Positions 56,052 through 64,000 of a stretch of DNA of 64,000 bases are shown here, in pieces. A program made the position numbers and the translations under genes. Origin of the DNA: Minisyncoccia bacterium (GTDB lineage: Bacteria > Patescibacteriota > Minisyncoccia > Phycocordibacterales > DATGWK01); assembly GCA_038259265.1 (NCBI GenBank), contig JBBSOY010000001.1, positions 562 through 64,561 on the forward strand. Direction: 5' to 3'. The first letter of the stretch is position 1. Every line of letters starts with the position of its first letter. The notes beneath the pieces are model-generated. The model was not told where the DNA came from. It ran no database searches and was given only the letters and a program-made list of their open reading frames with translations.

Positions 56052-56448
56052 GGGTTTATTTTACACCACTTTAGTTTTCGAAGATGCTGCCATTTCTCCA
56101 GCCGTAATTACAAAATAGCACTTCTATCGCCATCATGTCCTACTGAACAGCTGACTCCTCCATGACCCGAACACTCACCCGATCAATTTTTGCTTAAAAT
56201 TTATACAGAATATTTAGTAATAAAAAAAACGACCGATTGCTCGGCCGCTCTGTGATCAGACTTTCTCCTGATTATTTGAAAAGTCCTGAGAACTCCTCGG
56301 GCGACATGTCGTAGTTGAAGCCACGGGCTCTTTGGGGGTTAGGTCTCTTATTAAGTTGTACAAGGACAATGATAGCAAATTTTACTATCAGTTTGCACCT
56401 TAGCTTAGATACGGAGGATTGCGAAGTATGACTGCCAACAATGGCTAA

Positions 56449-56916
56449 TCATTTATGTCTTCTCTCGGCTAATTTGATAAACAATTCCTGCACATAGTCT
56501 GGGAATCCATTTTTAACGTTGTTCAAAAATAAATCCCGTACTTCCAATTGGTAAAGTTTGAGATCAGATAATGTATCAATATCAATCCACATCGGTTCGT
56601 ACACTTGCTCTCCATCCTTCATCTGTTCGAGTTCTTCCGAATCTGATCGCAGTTGAGCTTTCCCGGACACATATTCACAGAGGTAGAAAAAATTCTCTTC
56701 ACCCGTATCCCAGGTAATATGGTATACAAATTTTCTTGGAATAACTGCGATTGATGTCTCTTCGCTTATCTCACGAACAGTTGCCTGTTCGGGTGTCTCC
56801 CCTTTTTCAACACCACCGCCAGGAAATACATAGTATTCATCGCTTTTATTTATACGATGTATAACAAGCACCTTATTGCCTTTGATTACTATTCCAGCTG
56901 AGCGGTTTCGGTTCAT
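56449..56916 (-). CDS. NUDIX hydrolase
   Basis: Nudix box GGGVEKGETPEQATVREISEETSI. Confidence 0.8.
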   Translation of the reverse strand: MNRNRSAGIVIKGNKVLVIHRINKSDEYYVFPGGGVEKGETPEQATVREISEETSIAVIPRKFVYHITWDTGEENFFYLCEYVSGKAQLRSDSEELEQMKDGEQVYEPMWIDIDTLSDLKLYQLEVRDLFLNNVKNGFPDYVQELFIKLAERRHK

Positions 56917-56964
56917 TATAGATATCTAAAGAATAAAATAACCCTAAGAAATAAACCCAGACCA

Positions 56965-57634
56965 CTAATTAACTCTCGAACCAGGCTCGAGTACTTTTTT
57001 AATAAAAAGATTGAAGACTGCTACATGTCCAGGGCCCACAGTTTCTATATCATCCGCTGTAACATACAATCGAGCGTTCTCGGGAACACATATTATTTTT
57101 TTGAAATTAAATTCCTTAATATATCGCTTAGTATCCCCATCAGCATCTGGAGAATAATGACACCAAATTTCATACCCATGAACTAAATCTAGTGCAGTAA
57201 AATCACTCAATTCAATTTTGTTTTCATCTAAATAAGCACATGAAATGATACTTTTTGCAAAAATGATTGCGCCCGTACTACCACCGTAAATAGGCATATT
57301 TTTTTGCAATACTTTGCAGAATATCACATGTACCGAATTCTTTAAGCTCTTTGAGAAGCTTGTACGTATTTCCACCACCAATATAAGTACCGCTGAATTG
57401 TTCGAAGCCTTACTCCTCTTTCGAGATTAGATCCTCTTCTACCCACATCACAAAATTAGTAACCCCCAAAGGAGCCAAAACGCCGGACAACCAGGCTACG
57501 CAACCAGAATAAGGGTATTTCTCGGTATTTGCCGCTATAGGAATATACAAAAGTGGTTTAGAGAGATTCAAAGAGCTGACAAATTTTTTGTCGAGTTCAA
57601 ATGAATCCTTACCTCCACCTAAAAATAACCTCAT
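56965..57634 (-). pseudogene. disrupted S51 peptidase (dipeptidase E / PepE-like) with an in-frame TAA and a frameshift
   Basis: The two track ORFs (57410..57634 and 56965..57381) together cover a PepE homolog. Reading through the TAA at 57412-57410 gives GFEQFSGTYIGGGNTYKLLKELKE (PepE GGGNTF motif). The downstream YGGSTGAIIF (SAGA catalytic Ser) is in another frame. Confidence 0.55.
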
Positions 57635-57674
57635 GGCGCTATGATAACTTTTTTGGGTCGACTTAGACGAGAAT

Positions 57675-61282: not shown

Positions 61283-62250
61283 GGTTTTGGTATCCAATGA
61301 CCTCTGGGAATATGAGAGGCATCTACAATTGCCGGTAATTTTAATAACCAATGCGTGAATCGTTGCCAACCCACACCAAATCCAGCAGAAGGAAGGTACG
61401 TATCGACTTCCCTAGATTCTAGATATGGAGCATAGTCCTCTTTGGGTAAATTAAACAAAGTTGATTTTTTTAATAACGCATCCTTGTCCACAATTCTTTT
61501 TCCAGCTCCTATCACTTCACGATATCCATATAAAATTATATCAGCATTTTCTGCAATTCCCTTTTTACTACTTTCACCATGATAAAAAGGAACCTCTAAG
61601 ACTGGACATTCTGTTATTACAACATGTTTACCGAGCAGCTCAGTTAATTTTATTTCTTCCCACGAACCAAAGTACTTTAACGTTTGATTTTTATAGAGTG
61701 GATTTTGAGTGTGTTTATATAAGAGTTCCAATGCATCCTTGAATGTTATGAATTCAAAATTTTCATCGTCAAATGTTTGCGATAAGGAATCGATTTCTTT
61801 CCCATTAAGAAAATGTCGCAGGTTGTCTTCATTGCGCTGAAGAAGATATTTGATTATGTGCCGAAGTAAATCAATCGAGATATCAATATTTTCCATAAAT
61901 CCAATGTGTCCTTCAAATTCAACATGCTGAAATTCGGATAGATGAGAAAAATCTGCTTTTTCTTTTCTAAATGAATTATAGATCGAGAATACCTTGTCCA
62001 CCCCCTGCACCAACAGTCTTAATTCTAGATAGAATTGAGAACTCTCCGAGAGAAAAACTCTTTTTTTATTATCAAACCATGCGATATCTACAGGAAGAGT
62101 ATCCGATGTGTAATCGAGAACCTTGCCGGCATAAACTTCACCCGGAGACGAAATCATTAATGTGGTAAGTGGTAAATTGCACCATTCTGCGTTTATAGAT
62201 TTAAAGTATTCGATTGTTGCAAAAAATATTGCGTTATCAATTTTATGCAA
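61279..62250 (-). CDS. class II aminoacyl-tRNA-synthetase-like ligase core without anticodon-binding domain (AsnRS-like asparagine synthetase A / AS-AR type)
   Basis: 323 aa. Motif 2 FRKEKADFSHLSEFQHVEFE (compare AsnRS FRAE..S..RHL.EF.MLE.E) and motif 3 GFGVGWQRFTHWLL (compare GGGIGIDRL). The track start is a TTG, so the true start is uncertain. Confidence 0.55.
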   Translation of the reverse strand: MHKIDNAIFFATIEYFKSINAEWCNLPLTTLMISSPGEVYAGKVLDYTSDTLPVDIAWFDNKKRVFLSESSQFYLELRLLVQGVDKVFSIYNSFRKEKADFSHLSEFQHVEFEGHIGFMENIDISIDLLRHIIKYLLQRNEDNLRHFLNGKEIDSLSQTFDDENFEFITFKDALELLYKHTQNPLYKNQTLKYFGSWEEIKLTELLGKHVVITECPVLEVPFYHGESSKKGIAENADIILYGYREVIGAGKRIVDKDALLKKSTLFNLPKEDYAPYLESREVDTYLPSAGFGVGWQRFTHWLLKLPAIVDASHIPRGHWIPKP

Positions 62251-62410
62251 ATGGAAATACTTTTTTTCTTTTGCTAACTCAAAAACCTTTTACTAAAGTC
62301 TTTACTCGCATATTGAATCACGTTTAAGATCGGTGGATATATATTATTACCGAGATAACTAATTATCTTTTTACCATCCTCGATGCTCGCTTTGTAGGGT
62401 CCGTATAAAC

Positions 62411-63832
62411 TCATTTTCTTATAAAAAGTGGTTCGGGTTTTGAAATAATATCCTTAGTGAATATATCCAGGATCCTTTGCGAAGTCTCGGGCAAGAAGGG
62501 TTTCAGCAATAACCCTATTACAATTAAACCTTCGATATATTCCTTTAATGTTGCGGAAAGTTCTGCAATAGACTCTGTTTCCCATGGTTTATCTTGTGCC
62601 ATTTTTTGATCTAAAACCGTTATTTTTGACCAAATGTAACGCAAGGCTTCGTCTGGTTTATGTGAATCAAAGTATTCTGCAATTTTGGCATCTTTAATAG
62701 ACATTGTTTTCTCAATTTCTGCAGGATTATGAGGTAACTTCTCTGACAGTTTTGCGATTCGAGATACAAGATTCCCGATACCGTTCGCCAAATCGTTGTT
62801 ATATTTATCCCTAAATCTTGAAAGTGAAATATCTCCGTCCTTACCAAATTGGAATGATGTTATCAGTAAATATCTTACTGCATCAGTGCCGTACTCTTTA
62901 ATCAAATCCATTGGGTCAATCACATTACCAAGAGATTTTGACATCTTTTGCCCATCTATTGTAAAAAAACCATGCGCAAAAACCGCCTTTGGTAACTCAA
63001 GGTCATTAGCAATCAGCAATCCTTCCCAAACAAGAGCATGGAACCAGAGAATGTCCTTGGCCATAAGATGAAGCGTGGGTGGCCAAAAGTCTTTCCTGTC
63101 TTGGTACATTTGCGTTGCTGAATAATAGTTGATCAACGCATCAACCCACACATACACAGTATGTTTCCTATCCCAAGGAACTGGTATCCCCCATTCAATT
63201 CCAACGCGAGAGATTGAGACATCTTCTATTCCTTGCCTTATTTTTCCGATAATCTCATTTCTTCTTTCCTCTGGAAAAACAGAGTAAGTATTTTTTTCTA
63301 ATTCAGCAAAAACTTTCGCGGATAATTCCTTAAGTTTCAAAAAATAGTTTTCCTCTTCTTGCTCAACAGGCTTAAGATTAGGGTGGAGAATACATACACC
63401 ATTTACGATTTCCTCGAAAGAAAGAAATTTTTCACATCCGATACAATATGTGCCCTTATATAACGCTTTGTAAATTAAGCCTTTATCAAAAATTTTCTGA
63501 AGAAAGTCTTGGACAATTTTCTTGTGTCGAGGGTCAGTTGTGCGGAAAAATTCATCGTAGCTGATGTTAAGATTCTGCCACACATCCTTATATTGAGATG
63601 AAATCTTGTCGGTAAACTCTTGCGGGTAGATGTTGCTCTTTGCAGCAGATTGAGCAACCTTTGTTCCATGCTCGTCTGTTCCTGTCAAAAAAAACACTGA
63701 CTCCTTCCCCAACATATCACGATAAAATCGAGCGTATACATCTGCTATAAGCGTAGTATACGCATGACCGATATGTGGCTTATCGTTTACGTAGTATATA
63801 GGAGTTGTTATGTAAAACTTTTTATTTGCCAT
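62411..63832 (-). CDS. metG: methionyl-tRNA synthetase (minimal form, no C-terminal tRNA-binding domain)
   Basis: 473 aa. HIGH motif (KPHIGHAYTT) and KMSKS (KMSKSLGN). AT-rich codon usage unlike most core genes in the window. Confidence 0.9.
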   Translation of the reverse strand: MANKKFYITTPIYYVNDKPHIGHAYTTLIADVYARFYRDMLGKESVFFLTGTDEHGTKVAQSAAKSNIYPQEFTDKISSQYKDVWQNLNISYDEFFRTTDPRHKKIVQDFLQKIFDKGLIYKALYKGTYCIGCEKFLSFEEIVNGVCILHPNLKPVEQEEENYFLKLKELSAKVFAELEKNTYSVFPEERRNEIIGKIRQGIEDVSISRVGIEWGIPVPWDRKHTVYVWVDALINYYSATQMYQDRKDFWPPTLHLMAKDILWFHALVWEGLLIANDLELPKAVFAHGFFTIDGQKMSKSLGNVIDPMDLIKEYGTDAVRYLLITSFQFGKDGDISLSRFRDKYNNDLANGIGNLVSRIAKLSEKLPHNPAEIEKTMSIKDAKIAEYFDSHKPDEALRYIWSKITVLDQKMAQDKPWETESIAELSATLKEYIEGLIVIGLLLKPFLPETSQRILDIFTKDIISKPEPLFIRK

Positions 63833-64000
63833 ATTTGCAAGCGTGTGTCAGTCTACAATACTTTCTCCAATCACTCAATTTTGTAGACTATTGTTTTCTC
63901 TATCTCCTCTGATAATTTTCGTAATACGTCGTAGTCGTTACCCACCACAGAATAGTCGTATAGAATTGTTGGACTTGAAGAACTTACTGAGATATTTTGA

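Follow-up and report, generated by a model that had tools for sequence, protein, structure and literature searches.

Horizontally acquired second copies of aminoacyl-tRNA synthetase (aaRS) genes are known, as for the mupirocin-resistance isoleucyl-tRNA synthetases MupA and MupB and for the second methionyl-tRNA synthetase (MetRS) of Streptococcus pneumoniae. Here we describe a metG gene, encoding a MetRS, that lies in an AT-rich block at the 3′ end of a 64,000-nucleotide (nt) stretch of contig JBBSOY010000001.1, from a Saccharibacteria-type bacterium of the candidate phyla radiation (CPR); this whole stretch will be called the window, and the DNA that precedes the block the core. Among 125 Patescibacteria genomes, hundreds of genomic islands have been described; most single-gene transfers took place between Patescibacteria, and both the transferred and the island genes were enriched in translation genes (PMC12455944). 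A second point of reference is offered by the L-amino-acid ligases BL00235, BacD and LdmS (PMC6920838, PMC9486568), where BL00235 (PDB 3VOT) makes Met-Gly and Met-Met, and the staphylococcal ATP-grasp ligase LdmS produces L-Asp-L-Met in connection with sulfur amino acids (PMC9486568).

Seen against these systems, the compositional anomaly of the block is in itself ordinary, islands and within-phylum exchange being already documented as common in Patescibacteria. Our preferred explanation, which we hold with moderate confidence, is that a semi-mobile cassette reached the host from elsewhere in the CPR, by horizontal transfer or by recombination, and gave rise to the block. We take the block to be a genuine, contiguous stretch of a Saccharibacteria (Patescibacteria/CPR) chromosome. 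The direction and timing that we infer are as follows. The DNA of the block would have evolved for a long time in a relative of lower GC content (~33–38%), and would then have entered a Saccharibacteria genome of 46% GC by within-CPR horizontal transfer or recombination. The core of the block (58,284 to the contig end) is conserved and would be a semi-mobile cassette, and the equally AT-rich 2.2-kb arm to its left may be part of the same acquisition or of a neighboring one. In the present genome the cassette is decaying, because its AsnRS-like gene and the nearby peptidase S51 gene are broken.

An Abrupt Compositional Break near 56 kb

The GC content was 46.1% over positions 1–56,200 and 36.9% over positions 56,201–64,000, remaining low up to the window end. 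A maximum-likelihood two-segment fit on GC placed the best change point at 56,008–56,030, coincident with the start-codon end of a 3-dmu-9_3-mt family gene (55,569–56,051, minus strand). The associated log-likelihood gain (120.5) was reached by none of 1,000 shuffles of 1-kb blocks, which served as the significance null and gave a mean gain of 16.6 and a maximum of 68.2. All eight 1-kb windows between 56 and 64 kb had less than 40% GC, a level attained elsewhere by only two (24–26 kb). At the level of genes, the seven intact ones of the block ranged from 35 to 39.5% GC, as compared to 5 out of 55 core genes falling below 40% (Mann–Whitney p = 4e-7).

The values for the first, second and third codon positions (GC1/GC2/GC3) were.454/.329/.321 in the block and.531/.388/.489 in the core, and the share of FYMINK amino acids (Phe, Tyr, Met, Ile, Asn and Lys) was.331 and.287, respectively. 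The Muto–Osawa and Lawrence–Ochman regressions provide the expectation for a genome at equilibrium near 37% GC, and the codon-position and amino-acid values of the block come close to it. GC-normalized tetranucleotide frequencies told the same story: the correlation among seven core segments was 0.88 ± 0.02 (minimum 0.835), and that between block and core 0.51 (maximum 0.58). When the block was compared with non-homologous low-GC DNA from other CPR contigs (contigs and loci used for comparison carry L numbers, proteins P numbers), the correlation was 0.70 for the L021 flank and 0.76 for L016, versus 0.53 for the host core.

The original prediction of an abrupt AT-rich block at the 3′ end was therefore accurate, in that GC content, tetranucleotides and all codon positions shift together; its estimate of about 50% GC for the core was too high, the actual value being ~46–47%. 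It had also named a generally mosaic composition as an argument to the contrary, and small AT-rich patches do occur in the window and in related genomes, none of them equaling the block in length. Composition and oligonucleotide signature of the block both deviate in the manner of genomic islands. As for mobility genes, none was found in the window's block by Pfam and PADLOC scans of the window proteins; the related copy on L022 (see below) is bracketed by transposases.

A Conserved Module with Changing Neighbors

The block consists of two parts, namely a decaying left arm with NUDIX, S51 and HIT genes (56,052–58,283, 38.5% GC) and a conserved module from 58,284 onward (36.4% GC). In the module, a HisZ-like gene points rightward, while the genes for a peptidase S66, a methyltransferase, an AsnRS-like ligase, MetRS and an ATP-grasp enzyme lie on the opposite strand, where stop and start codons overlap.

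Copies of this module were seen in no fewer than five Saccharibacteria settings, whose flanks differ. The same gene order, with an intact ATP-grasp gene, was found on two JGI contigs of one organism (L021/L112 and L111), where identities to the window proteins were 68% for the HisZ-like protein, 58% for S66, 71% for the methyltransferase, 75% for the AsnRS-like protein and 80.5% for MetRS. L022–L025 also carry the module (identities 65/51/64/73%), and partial copies occur on L110, the closest one at 86.6% nucleotide identity, and on L002, which has the part from the ATP-grasp gene to metG. The left flanks of these copies are unrelated: the window has a HIT gene, L021 has YchF, DUF5671 and LeuRS genes, L110 carries an unknown gene, and L022 shows an rve-type integrase fragment. 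In five hosts, the module had 32.3–36.4% GC and its flanks 38.3–46.1%, the module always lying 5–10 points below.

The copy on L022 lacks metG and is bracketed by an HTH_38/rve_3 integrase fragment (739–1,221) and by the C-terminus of an IS1595-family transposase (5,756–5,884), which occupies the position expected for metG. This second fragment, 42 residues long, had no Pfam identification and was recognized as an IS1595-type transposase by tblastn against annotated plasmids. The arrangement resembles a composite transposon. On L021, the right edge of the module is a rearrangement breakpoint: a 73-residue open reading frame (ORF; 16,878–17,099) is the remnant of a ProRS N-terminus, 58% identical to the ProRS of L114, and it is followed by an Amidase_3 gene of 49% GC and then by the contig end, in two separate JGI samples. 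In three assemblies, including the present one, the contigs end within ~1.5 kb of the module's right edge.

The MetRS Gene and Its Relatives

The metG gene encodes a complete MetRS of the short CPR type: its product scored 429 bits with TIGR00398 against a cutoff of 336, and the HIGH (PHIGHAYT) and KMSKS motifs are present in the translation. The protein groups with 16 other clusters at 69% identity or more, after which identity drops to ~63%. Relatives at 71–85% identity reside on metagenome contigs that are labeled Saccharibacteria or unlabeled, and the next tier, at ~60%, comprises other Patescibacteria. The nearest are P0024 (85%) and P0023 (84%), on L115/L116, where metG is followed by an ArgRS gene and where only metG and ~50 nt of its leader are homologous to the window. 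The MetRS proteins of L113/L003, L002 and L114 were 71–75% identical to ours. L113, from a genome of 48% GC whose core resembles that of the host, has a metG of ordinary GC content (GC3 0.44), followed by a full-length class-II synthetase with PF01336.

On these data, metG is a member of a local Saccharibacteria clade that sits in often-rearranged, aaRS-rich neighborhoods. We had considered a xenolog from a distant phylum and rejected it, the nearest relatives falling in the Saccharibacteria clade; the suggestion that metG might be a xenolog was thus not supported in the sense of a foreign-phylum origin, and transfer of metG within the family remains plausible.

Contig L013, of 68.7 kb and labeled Gammaproteobacteria, carries a CPR-type MetRS in a compact, AT-rich (37% GC) four-gene operon (7,651–12,478) together with a PLP-dependent decarboxylase, a MobA-like nucleotidyltransferase and an APH-family kinase. 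The flanks of this operon have 50% and 46% GC, and an AspRS gene lies next door. Similar AT-rich dips around metG were seen in L005 and L008.

Transfer or Native Composition

Several observations support transfer. The composition of the block is foreign at all codon positions, in amino-acid usage and in tetranucleotides, and the GC of the module remains at ~32–36% while that of its hosts spans 38–46%. The variable contexts, the transposases of L022, the two pseudogenes and the contig breaks near the right edge all point the same way. The L110 copy is 65% identical to the window's at fourfold-degenerate sites (core genes and their closest syntenic relative, L117, 29–48%), yet its flank is unrelated to the window. 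Finally, the GC3 of the window metG (0.35) has not moved toward the host value (0.49), despite the fact that synonymous sites are near saturation (~42% identity) in comparison with its nearest relatives.

A number of findings weigh against transfer. Since the block extends into the contig end, only its left boundary is visible, and no integrase, tRNA or direct repeat was found there; the sole tRNA in the window is a tRNA-Ser at 27,366–27,453, and no noncoding RNA was detected at that boundary. A metagenome scan with the MscS protein for the empty site returned 80 loci at 53–72% identity, none with local synteny, and L117 covers the GroEL region only, not the MscS/3-dmu locus. A normally essential gene, metG, sits inside the block. 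Tree discordance was not demonstrated, and a test based on best-hit identities showed no discordance between GroEL (87%) and MetRS (85%). In the relatives, metG is adjoined by ArgRS (L115/L116), a full-length class-II enzyme (L113) or ProRS (L114), and in a neighbor-joining tree of MetRS the cluster contexts do not separate from the non-cluster ones but alternate with them. Some of the arrangement may therefore go back to an ancestor and have been passed on vertically, and the interleaving also argues that metG is not a xenolog from another phylum. Besides, small AT-rich patches occur frequently, both here and in related genomes (L004, L005, L008 and L013 have AT-rich blocks of their own), so a locally deviating composition is not exceptional.

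These points lead to the strongest competing explanation, namely that the block is native and vertically inherited, an ancestral aaRS-rich metG neighborhood whose equilibrium GC is lowered by weak expression, relaxed selection or a regional bias in mutation, the genomes being mosaic in any case. It would account for the presence of other aaRS genes beside metG in all related contexts, for the occurrence of the ATP-grasp-to-metG arrangement in two different MetRS subclades and for the comparable identities of MetRS and GroEL, which in the paired genome (L113 type) are 75% and 77%. It would also fit the other AT-rich patches in the window and in the four contigs just named, and the higher AT content of the module relative to its flanks, seen in every host, could be a property of the genes rather than a sign of repeated transfer. 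However, regional bias is hard to reconcile with a shift that affects GC1, GC2 and amino-acid usage and not GC3 alone, with a module GC that stays put across hosts, and with the ordinary GC of metG in the host-like relative L113. Nor does vertical inheritance explain why the flanks differ even in the closest copies (L110, and L115/L116 with their homology limited to metG), or why transposase fragments bracket the module in L022. We consider a native origin possible, if unlikely.

Irrespective of these reservations, acquisition by transfer is the best supported reading of the original prediction's horizontally acquired island, given the foreign composition, the five or more contexts, the L022 transposases and the two pseudogenes. 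Against it stand a single visible boundary, at which no mobility gene, tRNA or repeat was found, and the failure of the MscS scan to turn up a relative with an empty site.

Features of the Block

The features of the block are collected in Table 1. Its predicted gene content was confirmed by Pfam, with three amendments: the AsnRS-like gene is frameshifted, the 375-residue "unknown" resembles the core of HisZ and HisRS, and the window ends inside an ATP-grasp gene.

Table 1. Coordinates of the features of the AT-rich block and its left boundary
Feature	Position	Strand	Basis and remarks
Compositional change point	56,008–56,051		Maximum-likelihood fit and block shuffles; 5′ end of the last host-GC gene
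Non-coding spacer, 397 nt	56,052–56,448		No convincing ORF, no tblastx gene remnant
Terminator-like hairpin downstream of NUDIX	56,226–56,251	minus	Terminator scan
NUDIX hydrolase, 155 aa, 39.5% GC	56,449–56,916	minus	PF00293, E = 2.7e-16; Nudix box in translation
Peptidase S51 (PepE-like) pseudogene	56,965–57,634	minus	PF03575 on C-terminal ORF; internal stop and frameshift
HIT-family (HinT-like) hydrolase, 133 aa	57,675–58,076	minus	PF01230, E = 1.8e-15; HVHVH motif
Strong terminator-like hairpin	58,108–58,138	minus	Terminator scan: 13-bp stem, then T-run
A9G8 tract	58,254–58,270	plus	14 nt left of the module's left edge (L110 homology starts at 58,284)
HisZ/HisRS-core-like class-II paralogue, 375 aa	58,328–59,455	plus	AF2 model and Foldseek; no anticodon-binding domain
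Peptidase S66 (LD-carboxypeptidase/MccF family), 334 aa	59,452–60,456	minus	PF02016 and PF17676
Class I SAM-dependent methyltransferase, ~279 aa	60,443–61,282	minus	Pfam methyltransferase families
AsnRS-catalytic-core-like ligase (archaeal AsnA-like), frameshifted	61,279–62,414	minus	PF00152 only
MetRS (metG), 473 aa, short CPR type, 37.5% GC	62,411–63,832	minus	TIGR00398, PF09334
ATP-grasp L-amino-acid-ligase-like gene, 3′ end	63,874–64,000	minus	Continues past the window

In the left arm, three claims stood up to inspection. The region 56,060–56,450, supposed to be non-coding, corresponds to a spacer (56,052–56,448) devoid of any convincing ORF or detectable gene remnant. The disrupted PepE is a genuine pseudogene, whose three-frame translation gives an N-terminal piece of 74 residues, then a stop and then a change of frame; the same lesions are present in Logan contig L001, described below. 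The A9G8 tract, too, is where it had been seen. The HIT protein matched the NCBIfam HinT model below that model's cutoff. To the right of the strong hairpin there is no minus-strand gene, and this orphan element may be a relic of the context that preceded the module; the hairpin and the A9G8 tract together may mark the scar of the module's insertion. NUDIX and S51 genes near metG in L114 offer weak evidence for conserved synteny, the proteins being just 32–34% identical to those of the window.

The HisZ-like protein of the window had no Pfam or NCBIfam match, and its distant homologues carry PF13393. Its AlphaFold2 (AF2) model (pLDDT 80) gave HisZ and HisRS as top Foldseek matches, with a TM-score of ~0.57 and ~13% identity. 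The protein had no match to TIGR00443, family members scoring ~20 bits against a cutoff of 272, and hisG was absent from all module contexts seen. The resemblance to HisZ lies in the fold only. A profile search at E ≤ 1e-30 retrieved 735 representative clusters, and the family is thus a sizeable, uncharacterized one that no curated model captures. An initial impression that the 375-residue protein is very rare had to be dropped, since the 11 matches on which it was based reflected the word index. Most members (P0262–P0409) have ~375 residues, a subgroup has ~320, and P0342 shows a C-terminal GNAT fusion. A viral-contig scan with the HisZ-like alignment found no viral relative.

The S66 protein passed PF02016 (118 bits) and PF17676 (100 bits) and failed the LdcA equivalog (123 bits against a cutoff of 378); the S66 and HIT assignments hold at family level only. 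The start of the methyltransferase gene overlaps the stop of the upstream gene (ATGA) and was set by alignment with the L021 orthologue and by the sequence.

The AsnRS-like gene carries a 1-nt deletion near 62,287 (AGGGTTTTT to AGGTTTTT), such that residues 1–43 are read in frame −3 and residues 43–378 in frame −2. Independently, it is interrupted in L022/L023 by a nonsense codon that replaces the Gln of the conserved motif SESSQFYLELR; in L021/L111 it is intact. The best PDB match was an AsnRS (1x54). Nevertheless the protein does not qualify as AsnS, since it has PF00152 without PF01336 and thus lacks the N-terminal OB-fold anticodon-binding domain, and the asnS models align from position 125 on with 138–142 bits against cutoffs of 343–414. 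The archaeal AsnA model (PRK06462) aligned end to end, scoring 112 bits against a cutoff of 389, and PDB 3P8T matched just the C-terminal 107 residues.

The ATP-grasp fragment in the window matches the C-terminal 42 residues of the L021 protein at 52% identity. In that orthologue, residues 11–374 align with BL00235, the best PDB match (E = 6e-19), followed by BacD, and its scores fall well short of every NCBIfam equivalog cutoff.

What the Module Might Do

Going by its recurring gene partners, and with low confidence, the chemistry of the cassette is probably the synthesis or recycling of a small peptide that contains Met and/or Asp, or of an aminoacyl derivative; this is the most economical proposal. 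Hints of methionine/S-adenosylmethionine (SAM) and aspartate are that MetRS adjoins a ligase whose best solved relative is Met-specific, that a SAM-dependent methyltransferase is present and that the AsnA-like core is of the aspartate type. An S51 gene, of a family of Asp-X dipeptidases, lies near the module in the window and beside the HisZ-like gene in L026, which encodes a SAM-cleaving enzyme as well; an AdoMet synthase is found in L114.

A broader idea, which we regard as rather doubtful, is that CPR-type metG is recurrently mobilized in AT-rich accessory cassettes, such as this module and the L013 operon, and that the module would be a self-contained, transferable pathway for a Met/Asp small peptide or aminoacyl derivative that carries its own MetRS and is assembled around two tRNA-independent class-II aaRS paralogues, one of them from the HisZ-like family. 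If so, an essential translation gene would hitch-hike on, or stabilize, mobile metabolic cassettes in ultra-small bacteria.

Self-resistance is classically signaled by an aaRS gene that lies within a gene cluster. Accordingly, the cluster could be imagined to make a Trojan-horse antibiotic, that is, an aminoacyl-adenylate or dipeptide antimetabolite, with the MccF-like S66 and HIT proteins as self-immunity and MetRS as a dedicated or resistant second copy, an interpretation compatible with transfer. The gene content invites this thought, as it combines two class-II aaRS paralogues lacking an anticodon domain with a BacD/BL00235-related ATP-grasp enzyme, a methyltransferase, an S66 peptidase and a nearby HIT protein. 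However, the MetRS is 71–85% identical to metG products in housekeeping contexts (L113, L114, L115/L116) and shows no special divergence; because it is not set apart from these, an antibiotic-plus-immunity function with a resistant MetRS is less likely than a Met/Asp cassette. Moreover, no transporter or precursor gene is present in the cluster, the AsnRS-like gene was inactivated independently in two lineages, the S66 and HIT proteins are assigned no further than to family, and PADLOC, run on the window for defense systems, gave only generic NUDIX, HIT and methyltransferase domain matches. An antibiotic cluster is, in our opinion, improbable.

Continuity of the Contig

The window ends at most 1.3 kb from the end of a 65,319-bp metagenome contig, and the block sits at that end, as might be the case for a chimera, the other possibility that the original prediction had raised. 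A 3,002-bp contig of the unitig-based Logan assembly of run SRR24807092 (L001) is 100% identical to window positions 55,207–58,208. It runs across the GC break, with ~0.8 kb at host GC on one side and 2.2 kb of AT-rich sequence on the other; the host thus truly borders on at least 2.2 kb of such sequence, and a misassembly at 56 kb is unlikely, with the proviso that the reads may be common to the Logan and NCBI assemblies. L001 stops 46 nt before the low-complexity A9G8 tract, and the window is homologous to the nearest module copy from 58,284 onward; the join of left arm and module at ~58.27 kb thus lies outside L001 and has no independent spanning. Repeats at the two junctions amounted to just short, chance-level matches, and the module genes were found again at 99.7–100% identity in Logan assemblies. 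S51 and NUDIX genes also occur near HisZ-like or metG genes in the distant relatives L026 and L114, making the adjacency of left arm and module biologically plausible. An assembly or binning error that joined two co-occurring Saccharibacteria populations (46% and 37% GC), at ~56.0 kb or at the A9G8 tract, is accordingly the least probable of the explanations considered here.

For the curation of metagenome-assembled genomes (MAGs), the lesson is that an abrupt GC step at a contig end need not be a chimera, and that independent unitig assemblies offer a cheap check.

The Host and Its Other Compositional Patches

We place the host among Saccharibacteria-type CPR bacteria: the closest MetRS loci that bear an organism name are Saccharibacteria MAGs. 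Its core shares gene order with L117 (contig JAHFLV010000004.1, GCA_023264565.1, 43.6% GC), with the succession Gmad2, RNase J, SBP, SecG, Cpn10, GroEL, LemA, M48, then DUF192 and NrdA; identities were 87% for GroEL, 87% for NrdA and 85% for RNase J. A UPF0020 methyltransferase in common with L115 was tried as a calibrator of divergence and proved unusable, as the gene lies in a variable slot without an L117 counterpart.

Further AT-rich patches in the window are located at 13.8–15.1 kb, at 22.7–25.9 kb and at groES (33.4 kb). The second (22,707–25,859, 37–39% GC) encodes an 842-residue protein with a weak reprolysin-like match and a 204-residue unknown. It occupies a slot of variable content that lies between tRNA-Ser and DUF192/NrdA and in which L117 carries unrelated genes (1177 residues, 129 residues and RRM), and its tetranucleotide correlation was 0.70 with the main block and 0.50 with the core.

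The groES gene (33,401–33,853, 38.9% GC) encodes a protein of 150 residues with an N-terminal extension, 59% identical to the L117 GroES, and stands beside a groEL (31,700–33,364) of 49% GC whose product is 87% identical to its counterpart. A xenologous replacement of groES may have occurred, and groS is among the genes listed as transferred in Patescibacteria (PMC12455944).

A DUF3466-like gene of 58% GC (12,621–13,709) adjoins ORFs at 13,798–14,370 and 14,827–15,129 that have 37–40% GC and no Pfam match, a further local mosaic of composition. The tetranucleotide profile closest to that of the window core (r = 0.88) was found in the Saccharibacteria contig L004, in which GC drops from 43–49% to 34–38% over the last 4–5 kb (~17,000–21,446), suggesting that GC steps of this sort are common in the group.

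Comparison with Known Systems

The location of a normally essential metG in foreign-looking DNA, here and in several related genomes, is relevant to aaRS exchange in the CPR and to the choice of these genes as markers in phylogeny or binning. Similarly, a cassette that combines two aaRS paralogues of class II with a methyltransferase, an S66 peptidase and an enzyme of the L-amino-acid-ligase type is of interest in organisms thought to be almost without biosynthetic capacity.

Like the genomic islands of Patescibacteria, the block comprises multiple genes, deviates in GC and tetranucleotides, has a Patescibacterium as its likely donor and includes translation genes. Unlike them, it shows no integrase, tRNA or repeats at the boundary that can be seen, and it carries a normally essential aaRS together with a cassette not described in that survey (PMC12455944).

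The window metG shares with the acquired second aaRS genes its placement in DNA of foreign composition and, in some relatives, the association with mobile elements. It differs from the MupA/MupB type in that its product is typical of the local Saccharibacteria clade and in that the sequence covered here gives no sign of a second copy or of a resistance function.

As to the ligases, the ATP-grasp protein of the module aligns over nearly its full length with BL00235 and BacD, and its gene abuts metG close to the Asp-related S51 and AsnA-like genes. Its identity to characterized L-amino-acid ligases is low, with scores below the NCBIfam cutoffs. The AsnRS-like and HisZ-like proteins, for their part, resemble archaeal AsnA (PDB 3P8T and 1NNH), itself an AsnRS paralogue, and HisZ, a HisRS paralogue and regulatory subunit of ATP-PRT, in being class-II cores without an anticodon-binding domain. 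They depart from these models in their scores (112 bits versus 389 for AsnA), in the missing TIGR00443 match and hisG neighbor, and in the ~13% identity to HisZ and HisRS structures. Taken as a whole, the association of such aaRS paralogues with metG is a conserved cassette that has not been described before.

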